A stretch of 64,000 nucleotides of DNA, from the NCBI GenBank assembly GCA_963663165.1, contig OY760175.1, positions 1,760,001-1,824,000 on the forward strand, in the 5' to 3' direction. The position numbers and the translations under genes were made by a program. Position 1 is the first letter of the stretch. Each line of letters begins with the position of its first letter. The notes beneath the pieces were generated by a model, which searched no databases, was not told the DNA's origin, and was given only the letters and a program-made list of their open reading frames with translations. The DNA comes from an uncultured Desulfospira sp. GTDB lineage: Bacteria > Desulfobacterota > Desulfobacteria > Desulfobacterales > Desulfobacteraceae. Positions 17,921 to 54,657 of this stretch are shown piece by piece.

Positions 17921-17990
17921 GCATGAATACCTCAAAGAACTTAGCAGACCCGTGGAGATCAGGAGGTCAGGTCAGATCAAAGATCAAGAG

Positions 17991-18359
17991 TCGGGCCGAG
18001 TTAACCATAAGGAATCAAACGACTAATTGTTTTAGACGGGGCTTAAAACCATCTTAAACAACCGTTTTTGGTCCCCAAATAACCATTTTAAGAAAATCGA
18101 TGCTATAAAAAGCCCATTCGGTTTCATTTCCTTTTGCCAAAAACGATTGGACGATTGGGCGATTGGGGATTGGGTGGGGATTGGGGGTCGGGCCAAGCCA
18201 ATCATCTAATATTAAAAGGGGAACGCCCCCAAAATGGGCTTAAAACAAGCTTAAATCAATGTTTTTGGCCCCCAAATGCCCACTTTAAGAAAACCGATGT
18301 TATAAAAGCCCATCCGGTTTCATTTCCTTTTGCAAAAAAAGAGTGATAGGGAAAGATGT
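17991..18359 (+). repeat. Two tandem copies of the Rhs 5' leader repeat (first copy truncated at a stutter site)
   Basis: 'tttaagaaaa.cgatg.tataaaa(a)gcccat.cggtttcatttccttttgc.aaaa' occurs at about 18086-18143 and 18285-18340. 17991-18143 is nearly identical to about 42312-42463. Confidence 0.85.
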
Positions 18360-21300
18360 ATGAATTATATTGCCAGAAACGGATGGACTTTTCATATTGC
18401 CGCTATCATTATTATGATCTCGGCTTGTTTGTGTTTCCAGCCTTTCTCTTCTGTTCTTGGCAGCGCAGCATCTTTTTCAACTATTGCAGCCGCTGATTGT
18501 GTCGATACCGGCATCATCTCCTTTGATACTTGCAAGTTAAGCTCCACTACCCAGGCCGACTGGAAAGATAAATACACCACCCTGGTCAACGGTGTAGAAA
18601 CAACCGTTAAAAAAGCCTCAGAAACCATCAACGCGGCTAAAACCTACCTGGGCGACCCCGTAGACATGGTAACCGGGGAGTTCTACACGGAAGAAACCCC
18701 GGATTTTCAGATCAAAGGCCGAGGCCTTGATCTGTCCATTGCCCGAAAATACAAAAGCAAGACCATCTACAACGGCCCGTTCGGCTACGGCTGGACCTGG
18801 AACCACGGGGAACGCATTCTGCCCCTGACCGGGGGCGATGTCCTTTATTATGATAATGACGGGGATGCCCAGGAGATTAATTCCAATGGCGACGGGACTT
18901 ATACATATCCTAAGGGATCTCAGTTTGTTTTGACCATGGAATCCGGGGAATATGTGATTACCCGGAACCGGACCCGGCTAAGATCCTTTTTTTCCGGCCA
19001 GGGATATCTGATCAGGAAGGCGGACCGGTTCGGCAATACCCTGACATTTGAATACAACAATGCCGGCCACCCGGAGCAGCTTACCCACATCAAAGACAAC
19101 CTGCTGGTGAACGGACAACCCCGGTCCCTGGAGCTGACCTACAACTCAAGCGGCAAAGTTACCAGTGTGACGGATTTTGAAGGCCGGACCTGCTCCTATC
19201 ATTACCTTGGGGATGATCTGATCGAATTCAGGGGTCTTGATTACCAGGCCTCACCCGGCAATGCCACCCGGTACGAATACCTGTCCGGCCAGGCAAACGA
19301 GTTTCTGAACCACAACATGACAAAGTACACCCTGCCGGGCGGGGATTATCTTGAAATCGGGTATTATAAAAACGACCAGGCAGCTTTTCACCGCAACGCC
19401 AAGGGCGAGACCTTCAACTTCATGTACAGCCGGCTGAACCGGTACGCCGAGACCTGGAACGAAGAGGGGTATTACCGTAAACTATTTTTCAACGAAGCCA
19501 ATGACGTTATCCGGATCGCCAACGAGGACGGCACCATTGAACAGATGGCCTATGATGAATACGGCCATCACAACAAGATTTCCCATACAGACGGCAACGG
19601 GTACACAACCACGTTTCAATATTACCCCGAAGGCACTGCGGAACCAGCCCGGGAAGCCTTTGTCAAAAACCGTAACCTGTATCTTAAGACCGACGCCCTG
19701 GGCCGCACCTGGAAGTACCGGTACGATGATGCAAACAACCCTTATGCACCGTCACAGGCAACGGACCCTGCAGACCATATTACCCGGTTTGAGTATTATA
19801 CCAACGGCAGCCTGCATAAAAAAATCCAGGCCCCGGGTTACAAATTTGATGATGACGGGGGTCTGGTTGAAGATGCAACCGCGCAGGGTTTTGTAACCGC
19901 ATACGAATATGACGCTTACGGCCATACCATCAAAATCACGGACCCGCTGAACAAATTTGAGGAACGGATCTATGATACAGCCAACAACCTGTATCTGATG
20001 GTGCTCAAAGATAAGCGGGGCAATGAGACCCGATACCAGTATTATGAAGATTTTTCGGAAAACATGCCCATAGGGGCTCTGAAATCCAAAACCGTCATAT
20101 CCGGGACAAAGGAGTACACTACAACATACCAATATGATCCGCTGGGCCGAAAGACCAGGGAAACAGATCCCCTTTTACAGGAGACGGAATACCAGTACAC
20201 CCTTGACGGCAAGCTTAAAAAAATCATCAAACCCAACCAGGCTGTCACCGAACACATCTACGACACCGCCCGGGACATCGTATCCGGGGCACAGATAATA
20301 GAAACCATTGACCCCTTGGGCAACAGCGAGCATTTTTCTTACGACGCCACAGGCAAACTGATTAAAAAACAGGATAAAAACGGGAACACCTACACGTTTT
20401 CCTATGATGCCATGGGACGGCTTGCCAAAGAAGTTGACCCGTTCAGAACCATCAGGATGTACACCTATGACGGCAACGGCAATAAAACATCCGTCCGGCT
20501 TTATGACCAGGCAGGCGAACTGCTCAAGGAAACCCGGTTCACCTATGACGCGGCCAACCAGCTGGTGGAGAAAACCATACCCTGCCAGTTTGAGGAAGAT
20601 GCTTGTGAAAAGGTTATCCAGTATCAGTACTCCCTTGACGGCAAACCGGAAAAAGAGACCATCCTGTTCCCGGATGAAGAAGCGGACCTGGTCTCCTTTT
20701 ATGAATACAATGCCCTGGGCCACCTGAAACAGTCAACCACAGGATATGGCACCGATGACGCCCGGACAACCCAATACCGGCACGATGCCTTAGGCCGGCT
20801 GACCCGGACCATACTTCCCTTAGGCAATTCAAAACAGAACGAATACGATGCCAACGGCAATGTAACCGAAATACGATTTTTTGACCGGAACGGGAACCTG
20901 CTGGAAGAGACCTCCCATCTGTATGATGCCAGAAACCTTTTGGAAGGAACCGTCAATCCACTGGGGGACAGTATCTATTATTCCCATGACGCCCTGGGAA
21001 GAAAAGACAGTCAATCGCAGGTTCTTGCCTCCGGTGATGTAATCGAATATCAATGGCAGTATGACGAGGTTGGCAATGTAATCCAGGAGACAGATCCATT
21101 AGGCCGGCTGACCCGGCACGGGTACGACCTGAACGGCCGGAAAACCAGGACCGTGGATGCCCTTGGCCAGACAGTTGCCTTTGAATACGACCCCAACGGC
21201 AACCAGACCGCCGTTACCTGGCCGGACCAAAGCCGAACCACGACCTATTATGATGCCCTGAACCGGAAAATCGGCGTTGAAGACGAGCTGGGCCATGTCC

Positions 21301-24308: not shown

Positions 24309-24321
24309 AGGTAAAACCATT

Positions 24322-24711: not shown

Positions 24712-25035
24712 ATGGGGGGCGTATAGAATTCGGGGGACATACTTAATTATTGTTAATCTCAATTGAGCTGGGGTCGGACCAAGCTAATAGGCTGATATCA
24801 TAACAAAAACCATCGAAAACCACCCCCAAAACAGGGCTATATTGCACTTTTGGGGGCCAAAAAGAGCAATATAGAAAAATAACATGAAAGAATGCGGGGT
24901 CAGGTGTTACTGGCCAAAATCCTGTCAAGTCCGGCAAGTCCGGGGTCGGACCAGGAATAATAAAATGGAGCTGGGGTCGGACCAGGAATAATACAATAAA
25001 TTAAGTCGATTAAGACCCAAAAACACCCTTAAAAT

Positions 25036-25147
25036 GGGGCTATATTGTGTTTTTTGGCCCCAAAATGTCCATTTTAAGAAAAACGATGTTATAAAAGCCC
25101 ATCCGGTTTCATTTCCTTTTGCAAAAAAGAGTGATAGGGAAAGATGT
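25036..25147 (+). repeat. Rhs 5' leader repeat copy
   Basis: Same consensus as 18236-18359, ending gatagggaaagatgt-ATG. Confidence 0.85.
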
Positions 25148-31798: not shown

Positions 31799-31834
31799 TA
31801 TTGAGCCTCCCCATAGCTAAAGCTATGGGAACGA

Positions 31835-32561: not shown

Positions 32562-32618
32562 GGCGGGTACAGTGCTGGTGATGAGATCAGAATATTTATT
32601 TAGACAACGAAATATTAG

Positions 32619-34118
32619 GCCCAAGGCAACATCCTCAAGGAGACGTTAGACCGGAACAGCACCAGCCAGACAAAAGAATACACCTACGATCACTTGGACA
32701 GACTGGTTGATGACACCGCTTCAACGACCTGGGGTTATGATGAAGTGGGGAACTGGCTGTCAACCAACCAGAACGGTGCGGCTGAAATCAGGGTCCCCAA
32801 TGATGATAATGAATACGCTTCCGTTGACGGCACGGCCTATACCTACGACAACAACGGTAACCTGACCTCGGATGGAATAAAGGACTATATTTACGACTGG
32901 GCAGACCGGCTTATCCAGGTTGAAAACAGCGGCCAGGTCCTGGCTGCGTATACTTATGATGCTTTGAACCGCAGGGTTACCCGGGTTGTCGGGACCGAAG
33001 CAACAACCTTTGTTTATGACGGATCAGATGTCATTGAAGAATACACGGATGGCGTATTCGACCGATCCTTTGTTTACGGCAGTACCATTGATGAACCGAT
33101 CCTTTTGGAAACCGGCGGCCTGCTTTATTATTATGTTGCCGGTCGCCAGGGAAGTGTCCGGGTGATTGCTGATGACACCGGCGCCCTGGTGGAATCGTAT
33201 GAATACAGTCCGTTCGGCCTGATGACCATCTATGACAACCAGGACCAGGACATCACGGTCACCGGCTCCACCATCGACAACCCGTTCGGATATACAGCCA
33301 GAAGATGGGATGCAGAATCAGGTCTATGGCATTATCGGAACCGCACGTATTCTGCTGAACTGGGCAGATTCTTGCAACGAGACCCGGCCGGGTATGTGGA
33401 TGGATTGAATCTTTATGTTGCATGCTTGAATAATCCCTTGCGGTACACTGACCCTGATGGGTTAATGGCACGGACCGCTTGGGATTATACCGAAAGATCA
33501 GGCGAACAGCTTCTTTTGGGAAATTATTCGGATGAAGTGACCCTGTTGGGGACGGGAGCCCAGATTGGGACCGGCCTTTTAGGTATTGATCTTCTGGGTG
33601 ATATAAGGGATATAAGTTATGATATTCAGAATTGGGAATGGTCATGGTCACATATAGGCCAAACTGCCCTTGATGTCGCAGGGGTTTTACCATTAGTCGG
33701 TGCCATAAAATACACTGATGAGACCAAAACACTTATTAAGGGACTGGATAACGTTGATGAAGTTGCTGATGTTTCAAAGAGATTGCCACAAGATATAAAA
33801 GTAAACTCAAATGCCCCAGACTCTTTGCCTACAAACAGACCTATTGGAAAGAGTACTACTCAAAACGCAGCAGCGCAAGCAAAGATAAAGGAACTTGAGG
33901 CAGCTGGTTACACTGACATTCGAGTAAATCAACAGCAGGTAAATGCTGGGGGAGAAAGGGTTGGCATCAATAGGCCTGATATCCAAGCTACAACACCAAG
34001 TGGTCAAAGGGTTTATATCGAATATGATACCTCACTTTCAAATAGAGGTCCTTTACATGAACAAAGAATAAACGCAAATGACCCATCAGGAACAGTTGAA
34101 TTATATAAGGTTGATTAA
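32619..34118 (+). CDS. Orphan Rhs module (3' core fragment + restriction-endonuclease-fold CT)
   Basis: Core homology starts abruptly at about 32619 (AQGNIL.ETLDRN); annotated ORF from 32694. CT has NRPDIQ...VYIEYD, a PD-(D/E)xK-like pattern. Confidence 0.8.
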   Translation, partial: AQGNILKETLDRNSTSQTKEYTYDHLDRLVDDTASTTWGYDEVGNWLSTNQNGAAEIRVPNDDNEYASVDGTAYTYDNNGNLTSDGIKDYIYDWADRLIQVENSGQVLAAYTYDALNRRVTRVVGTEATTFVYDGSDVIEEYTDGVFDRSFVYGSTIDEPILLETGGLLYYYVAGRQGSVRVIADDTGALVESYEYSPFGLMTIYDNQDQDITVTGSTIDNPFGYTARRWDAESGLWHYRNRTYSAELGRFLQRDPAGYVDGLNLYVACLNNPLRYTDPDGLMARTAWDYTERSGEQLLLGNYSDEVTLLGTGAQIGTGLLGIDLLGDIRDISYDIQNWEWSWSHIGQTALDVAGVLPLVGAIKYTDETKTLIKGLDNVDEVADVSKRLPQDIKVNSNAPDSLPTNRPIGKSTTQNAAAQAKIKELEAAGYTDIRVNQQQVNAGGERVGINRPDIQATTPSGQRVYIEYDTSLSNRGPLHEQRINANDPSGTVELYKVD

Positions 34119-34846: not shown

Positions 34847-34944
34847 ATTTGTCGGTGGTCGGGGGGCGGCCCAAGCACATTTTTATAACCACTTGTTAAT
34901 AAACATTTTTTTTAAAATGAGGTAAAAACGACTCTTAGAAGTAC

Positions 34945-35043
34945 CATTTTAATACCCAAACTGCCATTTTAAGAAAACCGATGATATAAAAAGCCCATCC
35001 GGTTTCATTTCTTTTTGCCAAAAAGAATGATAGGGAAAAATCT
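34945..35043 (+). repeat. Rhs 5' leader repeat copy
   Basis: cattttaagaaaaccgatgatataaaaagcccatccggtttcatttc...gatagggaaaaatct-ATG. Confidence 0.8.
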
Positions 35044-41258: not shown

Positions 41259-41347
41259 AAAGACAGGAGACAGGACGGACAGAGACAGGGGACAAATTAT
41301 GCCCTTTTAATTTTCCACCGTCTTTGCTACCCCACCGCCTGTCATAA

Positions 41348-42304: not shown

Positions 42305-42311
42305 TTCGGGG

Positions 42312-42484
42312 CCGGTCCGAGCTAACCATAAGGAATCAAACGACTAATTGTTTTAGACGGGGCTTAAAACCATTTTAAACAACCGTTTTGGGCCCCCAAA
42401 TAACCATTTTAAGAAAATCGATGCCATAAAAAGCCCATTCGGTTTCATTTCCTTTTGCCAAAAAAGAATGACAGGGATAACCAT
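42312..42484 (+). repeat. Rhs 5' leader repeat copy
   Basis: Near-identical to 17991-18143 and continuing to the ATG at 42485. Confidence 0.85.
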
Positions 42485-42587
42485 ATGAACTTCCTTACCA
42501 GAAACGGATGGGCTTCACATTTTGCCGTTGTCATCGTTATGATATCGGCCTGTTTGTGTTTCCAGCCGTATTCTTTAGCTTTTGGTG
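42485..42587 (+). pseudogene. Truncated Rhs 5' end (signal peptide only)
   Basis: MNFLTRNGWASHFAVVIVMISACLCFQPYS matches the Rhs2/Rhs4 N-terminus, then breaks at the ggaact stutter. Confidence 0.8.
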
Positions 42588-42660
42588 GGTGGAACTGGTG
42601 GAACTGGGGTTGGAACTGCAGTGCGTGGGGTCAGGTCTTGAAATATAAGATTTTACCAAC

Positions 42661-42930
42661 CTAAGGAAAATACTTATAAATTTCACCCCGATGCAGGAAC
42701 CTGACAAAGCAGACGGTATCCTCTTCAATAACAAGGCCCAGGCGGTAGTCACCCATTCTGATACGGTAGTGGCTGCCCTGGGCCTTTAATTTTTTAAGGT
42801 TCCGGATCGCGTGGATGTCCGGGGCCTCTTCCACTTCCTGTATGATCTGCCGGACCCGGTCGAGCAACGGCCTGTCTGTTTTGCGTTTTTTTAAGTCCTT
42901 GGCAAAACTCTTTTTAAAATCGAGGATCAC
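42661..42930 (-). CDS. RelE/ParE family type II toxin
   Basis: KSFAKDLKK...YRIRMGDYRLG...HRGEIYKYFP. Confidence 0.88.
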   Translation of the reverse strand: MILDFKKSFAKDLKKRKTDRPLLDRVRQIIQEVEEAPDIHAIRNLKKLKAQGSHYRIRMGDYRLGLVIEEDTVCFVRFLHRGEIYKYFP

Positions 42931-43133
42931 GCCCGGCCTTCCAGTATATGAAATATCTCTTCTTTTGTGGCGGTGCCGGTGTTTTGCCCTTCCTGGATCG
43001 CCCGGCTCAGGGCAATGTCTTCCATGGCATCCACGATCATGTCATGGAAGATGTTCTGTTTTTCTTCGAGCATCTCGACAAGCGCTTCCTTGAAGACCTG
43101 TTTGAGCCTGCCCTCATCCATTACGGTCTGCAT
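42927..43133 (-). CDS. Putative antitoxin for RelE
   Basis: 68 aa acidic ORF overlapping the toxin start by 4 bp; EDIALSRAIQEG. Confidence 0.75.
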   Translation of the reverse strand: MQTVMDEGRLKQVFKEALVEMLEEKQNIFHDMIVDAMEDIALSRAIQEGQNTGTATKEEIFHILEGRA

Positions 43134-43152
43134 GGCGTCTCCTTACAAACAA

Positions 43153-43524
43153 TTAGGCCCGGGCCAGTTGTTCAAACTTATATTTTTTGATGAATGCATC
43201 CAGCAGGCTGGTCAGTACCTGCTGGTCTTCTTCGGGAAGCTGCTCTATCGCTTCGATATGCTTGAGAAGCTCCCGGCTTTTGATCTTGTTGATTGCCACG
43301 TTTGCTTCATCCCGCAGCAGGTAATCCAGGCTGACGTCAAACACGGAAGCAATTTTAACGACCATGTTGGTGGGCGGACAAACCACCCCCCGTTCGTATT
43401 TGGATATCAACTGGACATTCACGCCCAGTTTGTTGCCGAGCTGCCCCTGGGACAAGCCCCGGCCCTGGCGCAGTTTTTTTAACTTATCAGGCAATCCGGA
43501 TATAATGGCTTTGCTGTTATTCAT
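43153..43524 (-). CDS. Xre-family HTH repressor
   Basis: LKKLRQGRGLSQGQLG...ISKYERG...VSLDYLL; AAGGAGG RBS before ATG 43524; divergent from the primase operon. Confidence 0.88.
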   Translation of the reverse strand: MNNSKAIISGLPDKLKKLRQGRGLSQGQLGNKLGVNVQLISKYERGVVCPPTNMVVKIASVFDVSLDYLLRDEANVAINKIKSRELLKHIEAIEQLPEEDQQVLTSLLDAFIKKYKFEQLARA

Positions 43525-43684
43525 AAGCTCCTCCTTGCCTGTATTCTCTATAAATATGGGGCTGTGTGCAAACATATTTTTTCTTGACAATAACTTTAAA
43601 GGATACTAACTAAGCATATAAAGTTATGCTTTTTGTCGTAAAAAGCAAGTTTATTTTGATATCAGGGATGTTTTTAGAAAAGAA

Positions 43685-43726
43685 GGCCATCAACCCGAAC
43701 TCGCCAAAGTCAACCGGTTGATGGCC
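43685..43726. promoter_or_regulatory. Stem-loop in the Xre/primase divergent intergenic region
   Basis: ggccatcaacc-N20-ggttgatggcc, a perfect 11 bp stem. Confidence 0.5.
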
Positions 43727-43830
43727 GAAAAAAACAAATCACAAAAGGCAAAGCCCGTTTGTAACCGTTTTCTTTTTCTATCATATCTCCCGGTAAAAAT
43801 TCAATCTGTGTAATCAAGGGAGGTGAACCT

Positions 43831-44142
43831 GTGACATTTACCCAACGGTTCTACGAGATCGCCTGCATGTTCCCGGTGATGACCAGCAAAGGCGTACAGC
43901 AAGGCGATATCCCCGGCATCAGGAAGGATCGGTTCTGTGCTGATGACCTGGCCGGGTTTGTCTATGAGGGCGGCGGCAGGGCCTGGAGCACCGGAGAAAA
44001 GCTTGTATTAGAATTTCTGCTGAATCTGTACAACCCGGGAGCCTTTGACAAGTTCAACATCGGCTTTGCCATGAACGTATGGGACCCCACCCATATGAGA
44101 GCCTGTTTTAAGGCCATGGCAAGGATTTACAGCGGAGAGTGA
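43831..44142 (+). CDS. Hypothetical protein of the element
   Basis: Strong RBS (ggaggtg) before GTG; first gene of the primase operon. Confidence 0.7.
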   Translation: MTFTQRFYEIACMFPVMTSKGVQQGDIPGIRKDRFCADDLAGFVYEGGGRAWSTGEKLVLEFLLNLYNPGAFDKFNIGFAMNVWDPTHMRACFKAMARIYSGE

Positions 44143-44182
44143 CCCATGAACAGACAACGCCTTCGGAACAGCGGGATAAAAC

Positions 44183-46855
44183 ATGATAGAAAAAGAGACC
44201 ATAGAACGGATCAAAACATCTGTAGACCTTAAATCCCTGGTGGAGTCCAGGGGTATCGAACTCAAAAAAAACGGCAAGGGCTGGTTCGGCCTGTGCCCCT
44301 TCCATGATGACAAAACCCCGTCTTTATCCGTCACCCCGTCCAAAAACGAATGGCACTGCTTTGGTTGCGGTGCCGGAGGAGATGTGATCCGGTTTGTGGA
44401 GATGTTTGACCGGGTGGATTTTAAAGAGGCGGTTAGACGGCTTGGCGGTGATGAGGTAGAAAAAACCGCAGTTAAAATAAAAAAAGAGGACCCGGCCCCG
44501 AAACTGACACCCGGCCATATCAAGCTGTTCAACCGGGTTATTGAATTTTACCACGAAGCCTTTGCCGAAGATGGCCGGGCACGGCAGTACCTGAAAGGAC
44601 GGGGCATCACGGATAACTCCCTGCCTTCCGACCACCGGATCGGCTTTGCCAACGGCTCCCTGCTGAACGTGCTGCCCAATGATGCCAAAATCACAGGGCA
44701 GTTAAAAGATCTGGGCATCCTGAACGTCAACGGGAAGGAGCATTTTTACGGCTGTGCCGTGTTCCCGCTCTACGATTTTAACGGGAACCCTGCCGGGATG
44801 TATGGCCGCCGTATTGACGGCATGACCCAAGGCGCCGGCCATCTGTATCTTCCCGGCAGCCGGGAAGGTCTGTTCAACCGCCAGGCAGCCAAGGCCCACA
44901 AAAAGATTATCCTTACAGAATCCGTTCTGGACAGCCTGACCCTGATCAATGCCGGGTTTAAAAACACCATCCCGTGTTACGGCACCAACGGCCTGACCCA
45001 ATCCCATATCAAGTGGCTTACACAAACCCAGGTAGAAACCGTCTACATATGTTTTGACGCAGACGAGGCAGGCCAGGCCGCCACGCCTGTGGTTGGTGAG
45101 CACTTAACCCAAGCCGGGATCACCACGCACCCCATAACACTTCCCAACGGCCAGGACATCAATGATTTTTTTCTTTTAACCGCCAATCCCAAAGAGGGGT
45201 TCAACGCCCTGATTGGTCAGGCCAACCCTGCGGTTAAAAAAGAAAAGGACCTGAAAGTTACCAAAACAGATTTTGGCTTTACCATGGCGGTTGCCGACCG
45301 CAGATACGAGGTCCGGGGGATCAGCAAAAAAGGCGGCAAGCTTAAGGCCACGGTCAAGGGCATTGACCCTAAAAAACGCATGCACGTAGACACCGTGGAT
45401 TTTTACTCGGCACGGTCCAGGACCTTTCTTCTCAAGGGACTGGCTGACCTGTTCGGCGCAGACGAGGCTGCCGTTACCCAGGACCTTGCCAAGCTGACGG
45501 AACAGGCCGAACAAAACCAGGTTCCGGATCAGGACAACAAGGCTGCCACAGCCATGACGTTCCAGGACAAGACCGAAGCCTTGCGGTTCCTGGAGAACCC
45601 GGACATGTTCGCTGAGATCCTCACCGATTTTGAAACCCTTGGCTACACCGGAGAAGAGATGAACAAGCTGCTCTGCTACGTGGCGGCGATCTCCCGCAAG
45701 ATGGATCACCCCCTGTCGGTCATGATCCAGTCCAGGTCCGCCGCAGGCAAGTCCTATCTCCAGGACACGGCCCTGTCCCTTGTGCCCAAAGAAGATTATA
45801 TCAAGTACACCCGGCTGACGGACCAGGCCCTGTTTTACACGGGCAAGGAGAGTCTGAAGCACAAAATCCTTGCCATTGAAGAACTGGACGGCATGAACGG
45901 GGCCATCTACTCTATCCGCAGCATCCAAAGTTCCAAGGAGATCACCATTGCCTATACGGGCAAGGACAGTGCCACCGGCGAACAACGAACCATGGAGAAC
46001 AAGGTGGAAGGGCCGTTGATGGTCTTTATCACCACCACCCAGGTGGACATTGACGGAGAAACCGCATCCAGGTTCGTGTTCATCTCCATTGACGAATCCG
46101 AAGACATGACCAAAAAAGTCCTGGCCAAGCAGCGGCAGACCCACACCATGCAGGGCATGCTCAACAAGCTCAAATCAGAAGAGATTATTAAAAAGCACCA
46201 TAATGCCAACCGGATGATGCGGCCCCTTCATGTGTTCAACCCCTATGCCGAATTGCTGACCTTTACCAGCAGGTCTTTAAGGGCCAGAAGGGATCACACC
46301 AAATACCTGAACCTGATATCAGCCGTGGCCTACCTGTTCCAGTACCAGAAAAAGGTGCAGACCTTTGAATTTAAGGACCAGTCCATTGAATACGTGAACG
46401 TCACCCTGGCCGACATAGAAAAGGCCAACACCATTGCCAACTACGTTTTGGGCAGAAGCCTGGATGATCTAAGCCCCCCTTCAAGGAAACTGCTCATGCT
46501 GATCCGGCAGATGTGCCGGGACAAAAAAGAAGACTTCCATTTTAACCGCCGCCAGATCCGGGAGTACAGCGGATGGAGCGACTTCCAGGTCAGGACCCAT
46601 ATTCGGCAGCTTGAAGACCTGGAGTACATCTACTCGCTCATGGGCAAACGGGGCAAAGAATACGTTTACGAACTGGCCTACAACGGCGAAGGAGACGACG
46701 GTAAACCCTTTGTGATCGGGCTTACAGACATTAAGCAGTTAAAAGAAAAAGCCAAAGAAGCCGGTATCACCGATGACAACGAGGGGGAAAATTACAACTA
46801 CGAGCATGAAGGCGTTAACTACGAGGGTGGTTCAAGCCCCCATAGAGGGCACTAA
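44183..46855 (+). CDS. CHC2 zinc-finger/Toprim DNA primase fused to P-loop NTPase (primase-helicase)
   Basis: CPFHDD...CFGC zinc finger; TESVLD and FDAD Toprim motifs; SRSAAGKS Walker A-like; IEELD Walker B-like. Confidence 0.88.
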   Translation: MIEKETIERIKTSVDLKSLVESRGIELKKNGKGWFGLCPFHDDKTPSLSVTPSKNEWHCFGCGAGGDVIRFVEMFDRVDFKEAVRRLGGDEVEKTAVKIKKEDPAPKLTPGHIKLFNRVIEFYHEAFAEDGRARQYLKGRGITDNSLPSDHRIGFANGSLLNVLPNDAKITGQLKDLGILNVNGKEHFYGCAVFPLYDFNGNPAGMYGRRIDGMTQGAGHLYLPGSREGLFNRQAAKAHKKIILTESVLDSLTLINAGFKNTIPCYGTNGLTQSHIKWLTQTQVETVYICFDADEAGQAATPVVGEHLTQAGITTHPITLPNGQDINDFFLLTANPKEGFNALIGQANPAVKKEKDLKVTKTDFGFTMAVADRRYEVRGISKKGGKLKATVKGIDPKKRMHVDTVDFYSARSRTFLLKGLADLFGADEAAVTQDLAKLTEQAEQNQVPDQDNKAATAMTFQDKTEALRFLENPDMFAEILTDFETLGYTGEEMNKLLCYVAAISRKMDHPLSVMIQSRSAAGKSYLQDTALSLVPKEDYIKYTRLTDQALFYTGKESLKHKILAIEELDGMNGAIYSIRSIQSSKEITIAYTGKDSATGEQRTMENKVEGPLMVFITTTQVDIDGETASRFVFISIDESEDMTKKVLAKQRQTHTMQGMLNKLKSEEIIKKHHNANRMMRPLHVFNPYAELLTFTSRSLRARRDHTKYLNLISAVAYLFQYQKKVQTFEFKDQSIEYVNVTLADIEKANTIANYVLGRSLDDLSPPSRKLLMLIRQMCRDKKEDFHFNRRQIREYSGWSDFQVRTHIRQLEDLEYIYSLMGKRGKEYVYELAYNGEGDDGKPFVIGLTDIKQLKEKAKEAGITDDNEGENYNYEHEGVNYEGGSSPHRGH
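46775..46837 (+). repeat. Three 21-bp-spaced iteron-like repeats in the primase 3' end
   Basis: gacaacgag / aactacgag / aactacgag, with CGAG at 46780, 46801 and 46822. Confidence 0.45.
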
Positions 46856-46958
46856 GTGATTTTTCTTTTAACCGCTAAAAAGCCCTTATACCAAGGCATT
46901 GAAACGAATATACCCCCAAGTTCGAGGCAACCGGGGCAAAAGTAATTAAGGAGCAAGC

Positions 46959-47150
46959 ATGACATTTATAGAAGCCGTAAGGGAACTTGACCTGAAAGAT
47001 CCGTTGACCCGGGAGCCTGTACGCCCAAGTGAACTGATACGGATACTCAAGGAAGATGTTGTTCTGTCTGTGGAGCGGCCCGGCTCCTGGGAAGGGTCGA
47101 ATATGCTGGAGGTACTGACCAGCCACGGCTTTTTTACCCATCAGGATTGA
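46959..47150 (+). CDS. Small hypothetical protein
   Basis: AAGGAG RBS; fills the gap between the primase and the first recombinase. Confidence 0.6.
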   Translation: MTFIEAVRELDLKDPLTREPVRPSELIRILKEDVVLSVERPGSWEGSNMLEVLTSHGFFTHQD

Positions 47151-47161
47151 AAGGAGGGAAT

Positions 47162-48124
47162 ATGGTTAAAAACCTGTTGTTCCGGTTCCGGGAAAACCTC
47201 AGGGTGACAGGCAGAAGCCCGTCAACAGTAAAGGCATATGCCATGCACACAAGGGATTTTTTTGATGTCATGGAGATCAGGGCTGTTAAAAAGGTTACCA
47301 CGCCTGTTATAGAATCCTGGATCGCAGGGCTGCGTGACTCAAAGAGTGCCAAGGGCAAGCCTTACAGTGATGCAACCATCCAAATTAAGATACGCTCAAT
47401 CAAGCGGTTTTTTGAGTTTCTGGAGAGGACCAACATTATCTTTATCAATCCTGCAGAGTTTATCAAGGAATCCAAAGTAAAGACCCCGATCAAGCCGGCA
47501 CTGACTTTTGAAGAAGCGAAACGGATACTGGACCAGCCAAACTTAAGCACAATAACCGGCATCCGGGACCGGACCATACTGGAGGTTTTTTACACCACCG
47601 GGATACGGCTCAACGAGTTATGTTCCCTGACCATTTATGACGCAGATCTGCAGGGCGGTGTGCTGCGGATCAACAAGGGCAAAGGAGCCAGGGACCGGGT
47701 GGTGCCCTTAGGCAAACATGCAGTCAAGTTCCTGCGGGAGTATATCTCCAAGGTCAGGCCTAGGTTTGCCAAAAAAAACAGGACCTGCCGATCCCTGTTT
47801 ATGGGTTCTTTGGGCAAGCCCGTGTCCAAGGCGGTTGTAGCCTTCATGATCCTTAAAAACCGGAAAGCGGCTAAAATAAAAAAACAAGTTACTGCCCACA
47901 CGTTCCGCCACACCTTTGCAACGGTGCTGGTAAAAAACGGTGCGGACATCCGGGCGGTCCAGAAGATGCTGGGCCATGTGGATATCAGAACCACCCAAGG
48001 TTATATCCGGTCCCTGGGCCTGGATATTAAAAAGGAACACCGGAAAACCCATCCAAGGGAAAAGGACAAAGAAAACATCACCAACCCCAGGATAAAAGGG
48101 ATTATGGATCATCATGAAAGATAA
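47162..48124 (+). CDS. XerC/D-like tyrosine recombinase 1
   Basis: GIRLNE, HTFRH, LGH and TTQGY catalytic motifs; AAGGAGG RBS. Confidence 0.92.
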   Translation: MVKNLLFRFRENLRVTGRSPSTVKAYAMHTRDFFDVMEIRAVKKVTTPVIESWIAGLRDSKSAKGKPYSDATIQIKIRSIKRFFEFLERTNIIFINPAEFIKESKVKTPIKPALTFEEAKRILDQPNLSTITGIRDRTILEVFYTTGIRLNELCSLTIYDADLQGGVLRINKGKGARDRVVPLGKHAVKFLREYISKVRPRFAKKNRTCRSLFMGSLGKPVSKAVVAFMILKNRKAAKIKKQVTAHTFRHTFATVLVKNGADIRAVQKMLGHVDIRTTQGYIRSLGLDIKKEHRKTHPREKDKENITNPRIKGIMDHHER

Positions 48125-49049
48125 TCCGTTCAAGCCGTATATTGATCAGTTCCGGCTGGCCCTGAAGGTCCGGAACCTGACCGGCAAGACCATTGAACAA
48201 ATCTGTTGGAAGCTGGGCAGGTTCACGGCCTGGCTGATGGAAAGCCAGGTCTTGTCTGTTGACGCCATCACCAAGGATGCGGTCAGGTCCTACCAGGTGG
48301 AGCTTTACCAGGCAATCAATGCAAGAGGCAGGCAGAACGGCGTGGCCTATCAAAATTCTATGATGTCTGCGGTCCGGCAGTTCACAAGGTTCCTGTATGA
48401 AAGGGACTTTATCGTGTCTGACCCGGCAAGGGACATCCAGTATGCCAAAATACCTAAAGCCCTGCCCAAGGGGATATTGAGCCCGGCGGAAGCCAGAAAG
48501 ATCATCCATGCCCCTGATATTACCAGCGTAATCGGATACCGGGACCGGGTGATCCTGGAGGTGCTTTATACCAGCGGTATCCGCAAAGAGGAGCTAAACC
48601 ACCTGACCCTGGCCGATGTGGACTGCCATGACGGTTTTTTGAGGATAGACAACGGCAAAGGGCAAAAGGACCGGATCGTCCCCTTGGGCCGGATCGCCTG
48701 CCGGTATCTTGAAAATTATATCACATCCGTCCGTCCGGAACTGATCAGGGACCCGTACAACACCCACCTGTTCCTATCCCTGAGAGGCAACCGGCTGTCT
48801 AAAAACGTGGTATGGGCACTGGTGAAAAAATACGCCAAAAAGGCAAAGATACGAAAAAACGTCCATCCCCATACGTTCCGGCACTCCTGCGCAACCGGCA
48901 TGTTGAAAAACAAGGCGGATCTAAACACCATCCGCAAGCTTTTGGGCCATACATCATTGAATACCACACAGATCTATACCCACCTGAATATCACAGAGTT
49001 AAAGGCGGTTCACAAGCAATGCCATCCCCGGGAGAAAGACAGAGAGTAG
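48114..49049 (+). CDS. XerC/D-like tyrosine recombinase 2
   Basis: GIRKEE, HTFRH, LGH, TTQIY; overlaps recombinase 1; both end in HPREKD. Confidence 0.92.
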   Translation: MKDNPFKPYIDQFRLALKVRNLTGKTIEQICWKLGRFTAWLMESQVLSVDAITKDAVRSYQVELYQAINARGRQNGVAYQNSMMSAVRQFTRFLYERDFIVSDPARDIQYAKIPKALPKGILSPAEARKIIHAPDITSVIGYRDRVILEVLYTSGIRKEELNHLTLADVDCHDGFLRIDNGKGQKDRIVPLGRIACRYLENYITSVRPELIRDPYNTHLFLSLRGNRLSKNVVWALVKKYAKKAKIRKNVHPHTFRHSCATGMLKNKADLNTIRKLLGHTSLNTTQIYTHLNITELKAVHKQCHPREKDRE

Positions 49050-49052
49050 TTG

Positions 49053-49541
49053 TTTTTTCTTTTAACTGCGGTTTTTAAACAAGGATCGTCTCCGGTGCTC
49101 GGGCTTCACCCCTGGCGGGGTTCCGCTCCCTGCGCCCGGAGCCGGCCCTATTTTATGCCCACCCAACCACCCTTTAAATGCGGATGGCTGCGCCGCCTTA
49201 TTTTATATCCCCGCCCGCCCGGCGGAAGGGCTGTTCCGGCGCTACGGGCACGCCGGTCGCTCCACATTGCGTAAAGTCGTTGCGTTCGGCGTGTCCGATA
49301 AGGCGGCCTTATCAGACACGGCCGGTCCGTCACAGGTCTTGCAAACTGCCGCAATACCCGCGCCGGACCGCCTTCCCTCTCTACACTAGACATAACAAAC
49401 ATTATGTCTCCTTTGCGCAATGCTCCGCTTCCTTTGCGCCCTGCGCACCTCCACAACCCTTCCGCTCCCCTTAAAAAAGGATGAAACCCCATTTTATATG
49501 CCGGCTGACGCCAGCACCAAGCATGCAGTTAAAAGAAAAAA
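49053..49541. other. GC-rich non-coding segment closed by a perfect 17 bp inverted repeat
   Basis: ttttttcttttaactgc (49053-49069) / gcagttaaaagaaaaaa (49525-49541). Confidence 0.6.
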
Positions 49542-49728
49542 ACCATCCTCAATTTTATTTTTAACAGCCTGGGAAATCCTTTGATCAAAGGCTCAATCCA
49601 TAGTATGAATCACCAAAGAAGCAGTGGCAGAGTTTGGTTACGCTGAAATTAATTTTAGGTAAAAAACAGTTCTTTTACAACTTGGATAATCCGGATGGAA
49701 GGCTTGCCAATAAAGAGATTGCGCTTGG

Positions 49729-50619
49729 TTGGCAAAATCGTCTAATGGGATTATTTGTTCAAACAATCCATTGAGGTTCACAGATCCTGATGGCTTGATG
49801 GCGAAAAATACTGTTCAATGGATGTCTGATCATCCTATCCCTGGTCCGGACGACCTTTTATCGAGCGGCTTGCATTATCTATCAGATTCATTGGGGCAAC
49901 AAACAACTACAAATTGGGGGGATCAATTAGGGGCAACTATTTTAAAAACAACTGTTGATGTTGGCGCGGGTATTGTTGATTCTCCTGAAGCCTTGGCAAA
50001 TCAGACTTATGAATGGTCCAGAGATATTACAAATTGGAATAAATTACCAATATTGGGGACTAATGCTGTTGCTATGGCTAAGACAACCTCGGATTTTATT
50101 AATAATCCAAACTGGACAACAGGTTCTCAAATGGTTGGGGCATATTCTAGTGCGGTTTTATTAACTATAGGGGGAACGCAGCTCTTAAAAGGGCCTATTG
50201 GAAACATTGGGTCTAAAAATAAAGCAATAGGACTTGTTAAAAATGAATATCAAAATCTTATTTCTTCTGGGATGAGTCATCGAGAAATTGGCCCTGCCAT
50301 TTCAATCGCTCGAGATATGAAAGCTGGAAAATTTAGCCAAATTTATCGCAATGATTCGCTTGGCAACATGCCTTCAAATTTAAGCGATCCTATTGCCATC
50401 AGACTTTACAGTGCACCAGAGTATATAAAAACAAAAGGAATTGCTTCTCATTCTGAAATATATGCCGTAGATGAATTGCTAAAAGCAAGACCGAAAGCTG
50501 CGCTTGAAGATATCTCGGTGTTTACAATGGAGGTTAAAAAAGCATCATTACGCGGAACTTATAAACCTGCTTGTCCACATTGTGCTCATTTATTAGAAGG
50601 AGTTGACTACATTAAATAA
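49729..50619 (+). CDS. Orphan Rhs CT: YwqJ-like deaminase toxin
   Basis: Rhs homology begins at 49756 (CSNNPLRFTDPDGLMAK); zinc deaminase motifs HSE and PACPHC. Confidence 0.82.
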   Translation: MAKSSNGIICSNNPLRFTDPDGLMAKNTVQWMSDHPIPGPDDLLSSGLHYLSDSLGQQTTTNWGDQLGATILKTTVDVGAGIVDSPEALANQTYEWSRDITNWNKLPILGTNAVAMAKTTSDFINNPNWTTGSQMVGAYSSAVLLTIGGTQLLKGPIGNIGSKNKAIGLVKNEYQNLISSGMSHREIGPAISIARDMKAGKFSQIYRNDSLGNMPSNLSDPIAIRLYSAPEYIKTKGIASHSEIYAVDELLKARPKAALEDISVFTMEVKKASLRGTYKPACPHCAHLLEGVDYIK

Positions 50620-51620: not shown

Positions 51621-51847
51621 AAATATAAGATTTTACCAACCTAAGGAAAATACTTATAAATTTCACCCCGATGCAGGAACCTGACAAAGCAGACGGTATC
51701 CTCTTCAATAACAAGGCCCAGGCGGTAGTCATCCATCCTGATACGGTAGTGGCTGCCCTGGGCCTTTAACTTTTTAAAGTTCCGGATCGCGTGGATGTCC
51801 GGGGCCTCTTCCACTCCCTGTATGATCTGCCGGACCCGGTCAAGCAA
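51621..51847 (-). pseudogene. 5'-truncated duplicate of relE
   Basis: Near-identical to 42641-42867 (offset 8980); lacks the N-terminal codons and the antitoxin. Confidence 0.85.
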
Positions 51848-51975
51848 TGTCATAGATTGGCCAGGATTGGGGGGCGGGCCAAGCCAATCATCTGATATTA
51901 AATGTTACGTGCCAAAATCCTGTCATACTTTTTACCAAATTACAGAGCACAATTAAAGGGTAAACGCCCAAAACA

Positions 51976-52101
51976 GGGGCTTAAAACAAGCTTAATTCAA
52001 TGTTTTTGGCCCCCAAATGTCCATTTTAAGAAAATCGATGTTATAAAAAGCCCATCCGGTTTCATTTCCTTTTGCAAAAAAAGAATGATAGGGAAAGATG
52101 T
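51976..52101 (+). repeat. Rhs 5' leader repeat copy
   Basis: Near-identical to 18236-18359. Confidence 0.85.
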
Positions 52102-52488
52102 ATGAATTCTACTGCCAGAAACGGATGGGCTTTTCATATTGCCGTTATCATCATGTTATCGGTCGTTTTATGGTGTTTGCCATGTTATTCCGGCACTTCC
52201 TGCGTGTGCCGCAGCGAGGCCGTATCCCCCTCAACTACCACCGTCGGCACCATCTCACTGGATACAAGCACTTTAAGCTCTACTACCCAGACCGACTGGA
52301 AAGATAAATACACCACCCTGGTCAATGGTGTAGAAACAATCGTTAAAAAAGCCTCAGAAACCATGAACGCGGCAAAGACCGCCCTGGGCGACCCGGTAGA
52401 CATGGTAAGCGGCGAGTTCTACACGGAAGAAACCCCCGATTTCCTGATTAAGTCCCGGGGGCTCGATTTATCCATTATCCGAAAATAC
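52102..52488 (+). pseudogene. Truncated Rhs 5' end
   Basis: Signal peptide plus TTQTDWKDKY...GDPVDM...SIIRKY, nearly identical to Rhs1 11770-11985; cut at a stutter site. Confidence 0.88.
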
Positions 52489-52881
52489 ACGCGACTTGGG
52501 GTCACACGCGACTTGGGGTCAGGTCTTGCGCGACTTGGGGTCAGGTCTTGAAATATAAGTTTTTGATTTGGGGTCCCGGTTTTATTTTTAACTGCCTTGA
52601 AAATCCCTTGAAGGGCACCATGTTGAGCGAAGCGAATAAACCATCGTTGAGCAGAGCGAATAAGGCAGGACGCAAAGTAGACCCCTTTAAAAAAGTGGGC
52701 CTACTTTGCATGTCCTGTCACCCTAACGCCCTATCTTTTTATGGCTTAACCTGATTTTTTATATTTGAATATAGTTAAAATATATTTTCGTATAATAGCC
52801 TATAGAAAAACAGAAAATGATATAATTATCTATATTAACAAACAATTATAGATAAGAGCAAGCCAAGGGCCAGGTCTAAAT

Positions 52882-53268
52882 TTACCAAATAACCTCCACC
52901 GGATATTTGGCAAACATGGCATCACTCGTGATCACAGGTATCTGCCCGGTTATGCCCTGGGCAATGATCAGGCGGTCAAAGGGATCTTTGTGATGAAACT
53001 CAAGGTTGATAACCTTTGAGAGGTGATCCAATTCGACAGGCAGTACATCGATAGCGTGTTCTTCAAGCTGGGCAGGCATGAGCCGGTCAAAAGAATCAAG
53101 CAGTTCAAGTTTGCCCAGGCTTGTTTTAATGGCAATTTCCCACAGGCTTGCGGCGCTTAAAACCAGATCATTGTTAAAATCGAGCATAATGTTGCGGGCG
53201 TTAAGGCTGAGCCGGTCGCTTCCGGAAATGAACCACAAGAAAGCACTTGTATCAAGCAAAACCCGCAT
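52882..53268 (-). CDS. vapC: VapC/PIN-domain toxin
   Basis: LLDTSAFLW, SLWEIAIK, HKDPFDRLIIAQ, ITSD. Confidence 0.9.
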   Translation of the reverse strand: MRVLLDTSAFLWFISGSDRLSLNARNIMLDFNNDLVLSAASLWEIAIKTSLGKLELLDSFDRLMPAQLEEHAIDVLPVELDHLSKVINLEFHHKDPFDRLIIAQGITGQIPVITSDAMFAKYPVEVIW

Positions 53269-53489: not shown

Positions 53490-53516
53490 AATCTGCCTTC
53501 CTGTATAAATATGGTG

Positions 53517-53906
53517 TTATCTTGCATCGTCCATGGCCATAATGCCTTGCGTTCTGTTTTTAAGGATCATGCCGTCGAGTATCCTGATAACCGCCTCTTT
53601 ATCTTCGGCCTGGAATCGTTCAAGCTCCCTGAACCGCTTTGCCAGGCGGGTATCATTGAGGTTGCCCATGTCGCTGTGATCCCCGATTAGCAGATAGTCC
53701 AGAGTGGAGTCAAGCAGTTCAGCCAATTGTATGAGTTTTTCTAATGACGGGATATGCAATCCCATTTCATATTTATTGAACTGGCTGAATCCGATATCAA
53801 CCATGGCGGCCAACTCTTTTTGTGTCCATCCTTTTTGATTGCGAAGTCGTTTAAGGCGTTCTCCAAAAGCTTTTCTTACCTCTTTGTCCATCATGTCGAA
53901 AATCAT
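53517..53906 (-). CDS. Xre-family HTH repressor (paralogue of 43153-43524)
   Basis: FGERLKRLRNQKGWTQKELA...NKYEMG...TLDYLL. Confidence 0.88.
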   Translation of the reverse strand: MIFDMMDKEVRKAFGERLKRLRNQKGWTQKELAAMVDIGFSQFNKYEMGLHIPSLEKLIQLAELLDSTLDYLLIGDHSDMGNLNDTRLAKRFRELERFQAEDKEAVIRILDGMILKNRTQGIMAMDDAR

Positions 53907-54657
53907 CCTTATTTAAATTTTTGTTCTTGATTATAGCACGGGTTTGAAAAACGCCCTCGACAGCAATCTAATATTTAGATATCAAATATCCACAATAAGG
54001 ACAAGGTTTTTACTTGACAAGCTTTTTAAAAACGGAGAGCAATAGAAAAATGCCATCAGCCTTATGACTTTGGCGGGTCCCGGAATATGGACTGGTCGGG
54101 ACTGGTTCGGGACTGGGGTCGTGGTTCGGGACTGGCGGGACTGGGGTCGGGCCATGCTAACGAGCTGAATTAAAGGAAAATACTCTCAAAAGCACCCGTC
54201 TTTTTGGTCTTAAATCGATGTTTTTGGGGGCAAAAAGGGCTGTTTAAGGGGCAGTCAGGTTTTTTAGGGATTGATTTGGGGGGCAGACCAAGCAAACTTT
54301 TATAACCAACCGTTAATAAAAATAATTTTTTGAGGGCAAGGTAAAAAGCGGCTCTTAGCAGTCACATTTCGGTACCCCCAATAAATCATGTAAGGAGCAT
54401 TTATGATCAATTCAATCCAGATTTATCCGAAGAACATGGGAAACCATGGCACGCGCTAACCGACATTTGGTTCAAAAATCGGCCTCAGAAAGGCATATTA
54501 AATTCAGGCGGTGGATTTGGGGCTCACACCCTGTTTGATTTCTCCGCTTTAATGGGGTAAAGTACGCATTTCTTATTGTTTGATGCGTTTAACCCTAACC
54601 ATAGGATCAGCCAACCCCAGTGACTGTAACCCGTTCCTTTACAAAAGCAACCATCAA

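Follow-up and report, generated by a model that had tools for sequence, protein, structure and literature searches.

The window, meaning the whole 64,000-nucleotide stretch of DNA analyzed here, comes from an uncultured Desulfospira sp. (genome G000) and contains an island in which a main Rhs gene is followed by further Rhs modules, truncated Rhs heads, putative immunity genes and an element with a primase and two tyrosine recombinases (Table 1). The Rhs cores of the array are 77-88% identical, and downstream tips sit on core fragments of the same clade, one of them the orphan fragment at 32602, as is typical of an Rhs displacement array. Six module heads have in common a leader and the inner half of a transposon-like end, within which crossovers seem to have occurred. 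The leader piece at 17955-18143 is cut off at 18143. The primase element is separate, with a left boundary of its own, and is cargo here, outside the system of terminal repeats described below.

Table 1. Features of the island, with positions in the window.
Feature	Coordinates	Strand	Remark
Main Rhs gene, 2765 aa	9214..17511	+	Transglutaminase-like domain, DUF6531, RHS repeats
Putative immunity gene after main Rhs	17528-17920	+	
Short ladder, degenerate A-type end (17988), Rhs leader	17955..18143	+	95% like 42313-42470
GATTG-unit ladder, A-type end from 18184	18144..18295	+	Heads Rhs module 18330-24308
Small gene of Rhs module 18330-24308	24322-24711	+	
G-type end GGGGACATACTTAATT	24733..24752	+	22 nt past 24711 stop
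Complete A-type left end, running to ATG 24884-24886	24765..24886	+	ATG 114 nt from GGGG
B-like tip 24896, ladder 24926-24941, A-type tips 24942 and 24973	24896..25085	+	At head of Rhs module 25034-31003
Orphan Rhs C-terminal fragment, putative immunity gene	32602..34846	+	Classical displaced tip; no end at its head
Degenerate A-type end	34851..34960	+	About 15 nt past 34846 stop; heads Rhs module 35044-40911
AGACAG ladder, GGGGAC tip with no family assigned	41261..41300	+	2 nt past 41258 stop
Degenerate A-type end at 42304 stop, Rhs head	42305..42583	+	Head cut off at 42583
GGAACT ladder, B-type end (42627)	42584..42654	+	
Primase and two tyrosine recombinase element	42657..49787	+	Multi-copy in G001
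Copy of 42641-42867	51621..51847	+	Inner B end and primase-element head; cut 7 nt ahead of next ladder
GATTG ladder, A-type end (51870), Rhs head	51855..52489	+	Head cut off at 52489
Ladder with units longer toward end, B-type end (52537)	52487..52564	+	
Weak degenerate B-like site (52866)	52855..52885	+	
GGACTG ladder, A-type end (54143)	54089..54255	+	
Degenerate A-type end, right edge of island	54272..54377	+	76% like 34861-34957

Nine spacers of the island, 4244 nt in all, contain 18 matches to GGGG[ATG]C[AG] on the plus strand and one on the minus strand, compared with means of 3.3 and 1.1 and maxima of 9 and 5 in 300 dinucleotide shuffles, the 18 matches not being independent, since some are ladder copies of one site. 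The initial annotation had described a co-oriented GGGGTC/GGGGAC motif with stutter repeats at almost every module boundary; every stretch that it listed reads as claimed, and the motif is indeed enriched and strand-biased in the spacers. Most joints carry it, but none lies at the boundary 31799-32693 or directly after 51033, and what was described as one motif is an outer tip shared by several end families of differing sequence: an A family (GGGGTCGG[AG]CC, approximately 105 nt long), a B family (GGGGTCAGGTCTTGAA) and a G type, to which the end at 24733 (GGGGACATACTTAATT) belongs by likeness only, its score lying under the profile threshold. The tip at 41288 occurs only once in the genome. 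The stutters are ladders, one-sided series in which part of the tip is copied from a start 5-8 nt outside GGGG. A strict parser, by which units must cover the 4 nt preceding GGGG, counted several units at 18184, 41288, 52537 and 54143 and one each at 17988, 24942, 34862 and 51870; it detected no unit at 24733, 24770, 24896, 24973, 42308, 42627 and 52866. The GGAACT ladder at 42627 is genuine, but its unit is unlike the bases presently adjoining the motif, and at 54279 both 4-nt matches lie far upstream of the motif.

Judged by its sequence, the motif is the outer tip of the terminal inverted repeats (TIRs) of TIRYT/TIRtron transposases, which are Y1 (HUH) enzymes, and the island sites are gene-less (orphan) TIRYT ends whose transposase genes lie elsewhere in the genome. 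The accessible text of Di Nocera, De Gregorio and Rocco (2013, PMC3733652) describes the TIRtron/TIRYT elements and the TIR repeat families, and TIRYT is probably the TnpA-Y1 subclass 2.1 of Quentin et al. (2018, PMC6006769), as far as the available part of that paper goes. In G000, inverted GGGG[AT]C ends lie on both sides of Y1 genes and have their ladders on the outer side, and the C- to F-type ends flank such genes as inverted pairs. A survey of relatives of the transposase P0001 (80 loci, 68 unique) located A-type ends on the left at 42 of 53 and on the right at 48 of 57 metagenome loci, and on both sides of related transposase genes at 33 of the 45 that were evaluable; B-type ends enclose a Y1 gene at L168 of another genome, G002, and at L172 and L173 such an end precedes a Y1 gene. 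There are 197 end-profile matches genome-wide, at thresholds set to approximately two false matches per strand per family. Copies away from genes occur singly, paired or grouped, with gene-less inverted pairs all over the genome, and the B- to G-type ends are mostly inverted pairs that are likewise scattered. Intact elements lack a target-site duplication, their left and right outer bases being unlike each other.

The cognate genes match Y1_Tnp or NF047646. Subclass 2.1 is marked by NHxH, W[EQ]/FQ and Y---NP motifs together with a C-terminal helix-turn-helix (HTH). The genes of the D, E and F types encode these motifs (YIEQNP, YIHRNP), with DnaA-like or sigma-like HTH matches in E and F, and the A-family enzymes have NH[IV]H, W[EQ]DRY and YIDLNM and no HTH match; P0001 carries R at a position where W is found in 71 of 73 relatives. 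Sequence comparison found no solved relative of P0001. In G000 the second A-type copy is split by an IS200, a frameshift disrupts the C-type gene, and a B-type gene was not detected. The D-type gene of G000 lies at 4421577-4422263, and G001 encodes an intact A-type enzyme (L244). The A-type enzymes of G000 look impaired, and the activity of A-type ends in this genome may be historical. The window itself encodes no Y1 transposase, as had been stated, six tblastn queries having detected neither a Y1 gene nor a remnant within it, and the proposed link to a RAYT-like Y1/HUH transposase encoded outside the window is borne out by the inverted ends that bracket Y1 genes elsewhere. REP/BIME repeats are short hairpins with a GT[AG]G guide at the foot; the ends here lack a GTAG tag, and six of them when folded gave z values of +0.5 to -2.4 and no tip hairpin in common. 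A 50-nt stretch of the A-type end at 24765-24886 matches, at 84% identity, the left end of a TIRYT gene at 4.911 Mb of the genome (E 4e-8), and positions 24770-24886 align end-to-end with the left end of P0001 as far as the ATG of that gene. Supported by comparison of its spacing to the ATG with the loci of relatives, this segment is read as a putative TIRtron remnant from which the gene was cut away.

Ladders of at least two partial copies accompany 34 of 116 strong innermost ends (29%) versus 126 of 3000 control GGGG[AT]C sites (4%), and the inner side of the same ends has them in just 5 of 116; at 52 of the 116 the ladder is absent. Ends flanking TIRYT genes in unrelated metagenomes have at least two ladder units in 23 of 88 cases. 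Most units (113 of 137) begin between -5 and -8. From one unit to the next the copy extends further 37 times, less far 18 times and equally far 17 times (sign test p 0.014). Among 34 pairs of near-identical ends, common sequence extends 0-10 nt outside GGGG, never beyond, with a mode of 5-7. These one-sided partial copies support the reiterated copying at the tip that the initial annotation had suggested. The contigs, from which rare variants are dropped, contained no ladder-length variants and no tip-to-tip joints.

The predicted breakpoints just 5' of the motif are found in the window, where three truncated Rhs heads (18143, 42583, 52489) abut the first ladder unit exactly and a ladder or end lies at most 35 nt after five of seven post-Rhs genes, and in cassette differences from the sister species G001. 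Of 40 G001 ends, 23 have a stringent end-spanning match in G000; 16 of these matches start at -8 to +1, many of them marking merely the repeat's own edge, none starts at -13 to -60, and seven run through the end, six in a recently shared block and one where the motif falls inside a gene by chance. The two genomes differ at one orthologous locus, where G000 alone has an AAA/DUF4143 cassette and G001 alone a TumE toxin-antitoxin cassette, both bounded at tips or tip ladders, and where long units of approximately 100 and 184 nt bridge stutters and cassettes. One cassette is flanked by a repeat of core flank plus end. A DUF4258 cassette occupies two G000 loci and the front of the G001 array; the copies differ in how far they extend on the 3' side, and here too the limit is a tip. 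A G000 block at 3.514 Mb breaks with G001 at the inner side of an A end rather than at its tip, most joints of one scrambled toxin-antitoxin array lie at other repeat families, and four of the eight locus comparisons gave no informative tip junction; in two of them the variable block is missing or has its ends away from catalogued sites. A replication-strand bias was rejected: 37 of 58 orphan ends are on the C-rich strand (p 0.048), yet by clusters the count is 18 versus 12 (p 0.36).

In G000, 8 of 16 Rhs cores have a co-oriented end at most 2.5 kb downstream and one has an opposite end, compared with a mean of 0.38 and a maximum of 6 in 2000 circular shifts. The G001 ortholog has an end of another type 20 nt after the immunity gene, and the same post-immunity position holds different end families in G000, G001 and another genus. 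Among loci chosen by the B motif alone in 10 other genomes, 4 of 11 adjoin Rhs DNA, each in the same orientation as the Rhs sequence. In the phylum sample a convincing end is missing from most Rhs arrays, and a phylum-wide association scored by a loose 7-mer was rejected: the motif follows Rhs ends in 15 of 48 cases on the same strand and in four on the opposite strand, with 14 of 43 in controls, and closer Rhs relatives (n = 18) have five on each strand. A general link between Rhs genes and ends is thus not established, the phylum counts being no higher than controls and the strands even in relatives.

We think it probable that a TIRYT enzyme, likely supplied in trans, nicks the GGGG strand 5-8 nt outside GGGG, strand and position being read from the polarity of ladders and sequence alone, and that this is the likely source of stutters and junctions. 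The nick would leave the enzyme bound to the 5' side, comprising tip and interior, while the flank would end in a free 3'-OH. A host polymerase might extend this 3'-OH over the tip for a variable length before the strand is rejoined, leaving a partial tip copy with fixed start and variable stop, and repeated cycles would build a ladder. If the enzyme-bound tip were joined instead to another 3'-OH, the DNA outside the tip would be deleted or replaced, or, alternatively, an end and its downstream cargo block would be placed ahead of another tip; either would produce units that point the same way, uniform at the head and ragged at the tail. Selection would stop outward erosion at genes essential to keep, so that tips would come to lie just behind immunity genes, and homologous recombination between shared leaders and Rhs cores probably reshuffles modules as well. 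Nicking, 3'-OH extension and attack on a Tyr-5'P end constitute model 7B for the E. coli TnpA-REP in the accessible text of Ton-Hoang et al. (2012, PMC3333891), which gives the proposed steps a chemical precedent.

The ends could instead be passengers, TIRYT miniature ends that insert in AT-rich spacers, where they are tolerated, and form stutters on the spot, the Rhs array itself growing by homologous recombination (C-terminal displacement) that copies an end in the ancestral leader. The shared heads with their in-end crossovers, the end-less 32602 fragment, the genome-wide spread of mostly inverted B-G pairs and the lack of ends in most Rhs arrays of the phylum sample all agree with this, as does the account of Rhs arrays by recombination alone in the consulted portion of Jackson et al. 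(2009, PMC2935791). It is nevertheless unlikely, because it leaves unexplained four homology-free truncations 0-7 nt from a ladder, the strict co-orientation across different end families (18 versus 1) and the differing families at one post-immunity position.

More doubtful still is a dedicated system, in which a host-kept TIRYT and co-oriented ends form an integron-like platform and circles of end plus cargo are reinserted at tips, renewing toxin, immunity and toxin-antitoxin modules. At several loci co-oriented A ends do separate Rhs, toxin-antitoxin, AAA/DUF4143 and Uma2 modules, with 12 neighboring pairs in the same orientation versus 2 opposite, and the tip-ended DUF4258 cassette and the cassette within a core-flank and end repeat fit as well. 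Against it stand the damaged cognate genes of G000, the patchy spread over the phylum, ragged tails, many broken modules and the lack of any circle or junction in contigs; outward deletion with selection would yield an identical map, and common leaders permit plain recombination. A promoter carried by the 18184 end was dropped, the scan giving two matches versus 1.3 expected, neither of them in the end, since both fall at the start of Rhs. The process dedicated to array assembly that the initial annotation envisaged is not shown: the motifs are ends of a family named in 2013, they are dispersed genome-wide, and most Rhs arrays of the phylum sample have no convincing one. Integrons contain co-oriented cassettes, an IntI integrase next to attI, and attC hairpins, and IS91/ISCR elements capture genes by one-ended rolling-circle transposition with a Y2 transposase and ori/ter ends. 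The island resembles the former in its co-oriented cassettes between repeated sites and the latter in a fixed end with a variable far end, but the likely enzyme here is Y1 rather than Y2 or IntI. The parent element has two inverted ends in place of ori/ter, the six folded ends do not resemble attC hairpins, and both tyrosine recombinases belong to the primase element. Capture by IS91/ISCR is mentioned in PMC3333891, in the part available.

It is very improbable that the scars have another maker, whether slippage during replication of G runs, end-joining by the host or the primase/two-integrase element nearby. G runs are slippery, and the primase-element edge lies 24-30 nt inside an end at two G000 loci, but control sites are seldom laddered, ladders are one-sided and they recur at TIRYT-gene ends of unrelated metagenomes; the edge was rejected as a TIR breakpoint, since it recurs without an end in G001 copies and read contigs. 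Long reads are error-prone at low-complexity G-rich repeats, but an assembly artefact is practically discounted by short-read contigs (from runs that possibly include the source sample) that span 23538-25113, 33735-35083, 40800-42352 and 52759-54963 with zero differences and reproduce the 18144-18177 ladder letter for letter, and by a 14-kb block elsewhere in the genome that is approximately 100% identical, ladders too, in the separately assembled G001.

By their ends, these sequences fall within a known element family. Like TIRtrons, they include Y1 genes with flanking inverted repeats starting GGGG[AT]C and single, paired and clustered dispersed copies, and they have no REP hairpin with GTAG guide. 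The outer consensus GGGG[AT][CG]A[CG] fits the B, C and D ends, whereas the A type (GGGGTCGG) and the G type of the window (GGGGACAT) match its first six bases and deviate later; according to the accessible text of PMC3733652, only some TIRs conform to it. P0001 has YIDLNM in place of the Y---NP of subclass 2.1, as described in the available part of PMC6006769, and no HTH match. Ladders, a cut 5-8 nt outside, co-oriented orphan arrays and the Rhs link go unmentioned for TIRtrons in the accessible portions of both papers, and no earlier paper on ladders at TIRs or on a TIRYT-Rhs link was found in a mostly open-access literature, where Figure 9 or the supplement of PMC3733652 may show ladders. 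From what is accessible of PMC3333891, the likeness to REPtrons, that is TnpA-REP (RAYT) with REP/BIME, is that dispersed repeats are served in trans by a Y1 enzyme of the HUH class. The ladders and cassettes are compatible with model 7A, in which a single-strand circle is excised, and with model 7B, in which a nick is followed by extension of the 3'-OH and rejoining; capture of neighboring genes was proposed there too. Unlike REPtron copies, the ends here are polar and non-palindromic with a nearly fixed unit start (-5 to -8), and the copies are partial and variable, with cargo of up to several kb. Set against the arrays in the consulted portion of PMC2935791, the island likewise has a series of further toxin tips and immunity genes behind its main Rhs gene, and the 32602 fragment fits C-terminal displacement, but three of its downstream modules are near full length and have a leader in common that begins with a transposase end, and its truncated pieces are heads rather than tips.

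The ladders predict strand and cut site precisely, namely the GGGG strand 5-8 nt outside, and the array places transposase ends where modules of interbacterial toxins meet. Should these joints be the work of the enzyme, this would be an unrecognized route for pruning and renewing toxin-immunity and toxin-antitoxin repertoires, with bearing on how Rhs circles arise, a point that the accessible part of PMC2935791 leaves open for the circles that it proposes. Subclass 2.1 Y1 transposases occur in approximately 15% of the strains sampled in PMC6006769, as given in its available text, and the literature search, in partly accessible sources, found no substrate chemistry or role for them. It is conceivable, if unlikely, that an HUH-driven, integrase-free cassette platform, with tip-to-tip single-strand circles and tip-targeted insertion, gave rise to the Rhs toxin-immunity and toxin-antitoxin arrays. 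Such a platform would supply the circular intermediates that the Rhs displacement model needs yet does not explain, and would give a widespread class of TIRYT enzymes a host function.

The motifs of the window are terminal inverted repeats (TIRs) of TIRtrons, Y1 (HUH) transposase elements flanked by such repeats (PMC3733652, available to us in part). The source genome, G000 (6.74 Mb, 50% GC; the window is C1:1760001-1824000), has 14 PF01797 matches, and several of its non-IS200 PF01797 genes lie between inverted GGGG[AT]C repeats, which have ladders, partial copies of the outer GGGG edge (the tip), on their outer side. End profiles for which every seed site lay beyond the window gave 197 matches in six families and recovered eight window sites as types A and B. 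The link to Y1 transposases proposed in the initial annotation was borne out for both types. Metagenome relatives of P0001, an A-type gene of G000, comprise 68 unique loci, and most of the left tips lie 104-125 nt upstream of the start; A-type ends flank the gene on both sides in 33 of the 45 loci evaluable for both. B-type ends bracket a Y1 gene in G002, another genome compared. As anticipated, the window encodes no Y1 gene; such genes lie elsewhere in the genome. TIRtron transposases probably correspond to TnpA-Y1 subclass 2.1, as far as the accessible part of PMC6006769 defines it. The system belongs to the TIRtron repeat class and would work like a REPtron, a RAYT with REP repeats, or a one-ended HUH system. 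The A-type genes of G000 look impaired, its C-type gene carries a frameshift, and a B-type gene was looked for in it without success; its D, E and F genes have open frames, and the sister species, G001, has an intact A-type gene.

Motifs and stutters were present on reading of the stretches where they had been described, and in the spacers the motif is enriched, with the strand polarity noted for it (18 on the + strand and 1 on the - strand; shuffle mean 3.3, maximum 9). Stutters form clear multi-unit ladders at four sites and a single unit at four, and a strict parser found none at several others listed; the motif lies at most module boundaries, but two lack an end. An assembly artefact is contradicted by short-read contigs, which reproduce motifs and stutters (the runs may include the source sample).

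Ladders have a definite polarity and start position. At least two partial copies lie outside the tip at 34 of 116 strong ends; the inner side of the ends has as many in only 5 of 116 cases, and control sites in 126 of 3000. The start of a unit falls 5-8 nt beyond GGGG for 113 of 137 units, with variable stops up to +29, and units tend to lengthen toward the motif, as originally noted (37 steps longer toward the end versus 18 shorter). Near-identical ends from different loci have at most 10 outer bases in common (mode 5-7), two element copies in G002, 95% identical to each other, match from 6 nt outside the left GGGG, and orthologous G000 and G001 ends can retain an identical outer 5-mer yet differ in ladder. 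Because the unit start is fixed and the stop variable, the ladders would fit a scheme in which the GGGG strand is nicked, the 3'-OH of the flank is extended and the strand is rejoined, as in model 7B, proposed for TnpA-REP in the part of PMC3333891 available. Ends showed no replichore bias at cluster level, and neither circles nor ladder-length variants were seen in read contigs, which cannot show rare ones.

The ends coincide with breakpoints and are associated locally with Rhs modules (an Rhs toxin core with its own leader). As claimed for cut-off points, three window Rhs heads break exactly at the first ladder unit; a fourth truncated fragment breaks 7 nt ahead of one. A ladder or end lies within 35 nt of the stop in 5 of 7 genes following window Rhs modules, and a co-oriented end follows within 2.5 kb for 8 of 16 G000 Rhs cores, of which three are in the window and five are spread over three further loci (null mean 0.38). 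Other A-end clusters separate toxin-antitoxin, AAA/DUF4143 and Uma2 modules. Records from Desulfobacterales and Syntrophales supply most of the closest Rhs relatives. The corresponding position in G001 is without the island, and its Rhs ortholog is located elsewhere. The 7.1-kb primase element is followed by a short toxin-tip/immunity-like pair with a YwqJ-like deaminase match; G001 carries it five times, partly as tandem copies, and in some runs its relatives reach a contig depth of ~1000-fold. The literature searched held no clear description of it.

Features of the island and of related loci (window positions unless a genome or locus is named)
Feature	Position	Remarks
Inverted-repeat element, ~165 nt	5893-6057	Left island edge; G000 and many relatives carry copies
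Main Rhs gene, three near full-length Rhs modules, fragments, small putative immunity genes, primase/two-recombinase block	9214-50619	
PIN gene and HTH gene	Downstream of the 9214-50619 block	
Entire left A-type end	24770-24886	Terminates at its ATG
Short piece CAAAATCCTGTC	24913-24926; 51910-51925	Within or just ahead of A-type ends; also at genome 1380540
AT-rich gene, frameshifted, 11-G run	31950-32562	Between immunity-like gene and orphan Rhs fragment
7.1-kb element: HTH, primase (CHC2/Toprim), two tyrosine recombinases	42657-49787	Left part also at 52575-52857
Two PEP-CTERM genes	L018:15306-16820; L019:3975-5637	Each enclosed by A-type tips facing the gene on both sides
E-type inverted pairs	G000 596421-596475; 597258-597312	Both arms carry identical 9-10 outer bases, differing between pairs, as if one arm had been copied from the other
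GGGACTT/GGGATAT heptamer repeat family	G000, ~25 sites, e.g. 471970	Dispersed; distinct from TIRs

Comparison with G001 agreed with the predicted breakpoints at one locus, which differs by two cassettes, both with limits at tips or at the ladders of tips; the locus also shows long units (~100 and 184 nt). At another, the array is shortened and re-ordered with joints at tips. One break lies at the inner side of an end. A D-type end lies 20 nt past the immunity gene of the G001 Rhs ortholog, and an inverted one follows an orphan module. Just inside that inverted end (L036:8845-9200), the orphan Rhs is cut by what looks like a group II intron's 3' terminus. A 14-kb block (L041:5995-20000; G000 1525502-1539505) is ~100% identical between two species otherwise ~90% alike, which suggests that an end-delimited toxin-antitoxin array was transferred recently. 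Toxin-antitoxin and small genes also make up a co-oriented, heavily scrambled array (L162:2400-13200, G000 550-561 kb; L154/L155 in G001) whose gene order differs wholesale between G000 and G001; its joints are mostly at GCGCCTTT-type repeats and at GTAG-tagged REP-like hairpins, and A ends are few.

Across the phylum the association of Rhs genes with ends is patchy. In 10 other genomes, selection on nothing but the B motif gave 11 loci. Four of them adjoin Rhs DNA, all co-oriented, these four coming from two genera only and so not independent; three adjoin a Y1 gene. Among 18 of 20 Rhs-relative loci mapped (L072 and L073 were omitted as short), a co-oriented end at or just past the Rhs or immunity stop was judged by eye in six, one a whole TIRtron, and an opposite end in one. 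In the phylum sample a loose motif was not commoner after Rhs genes (15/48) than in controls (14/43). G002 carries four co-oriented A-type TIRtron copies within 15 kb (72-88 kb; L255:6649-17508, L256), 80-95% alike and three broken, and their clustering suggests local hopping of the whole element.

Recombination could move modules with the ends as passengers, since module heads have 200-500 nt in common, and recombination has been proposed for Rhs arrays generally (PMC2935791, in the part available); we consider this unlikely as the main explanation. That the ends form a dedicated cassette platform is a doubtful reading, and other enzymes or artefact, taken jointly, are very improbable. The window system is not an IS91, and an integron identity is improbable for it. 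The literature searched held no description of ladders at TIRs or of a TIR-Rhs link, and the accessible parts of PMC5581495 and bioRxiv 2024.07.17.603846 describe neither ladders nor the Rhs link. Several results count against the transposase as maker of ladders and joints: the patchy spread across the phylum, the stretches shared by module heads, the scrambled array with most joints at other repeats, the break at an end's inner side, the state of the G000 genes, and the negative results on replichore bias, circles and ladder-length variants. We nevertheless regard as reasonably likely a model in which the enzyme would nick the GGGG strand, the flank 3'-OH would be extended and the strand rejoined, strand transfer would join ends to new flanks, and selection would park the tips behind immunity genes.
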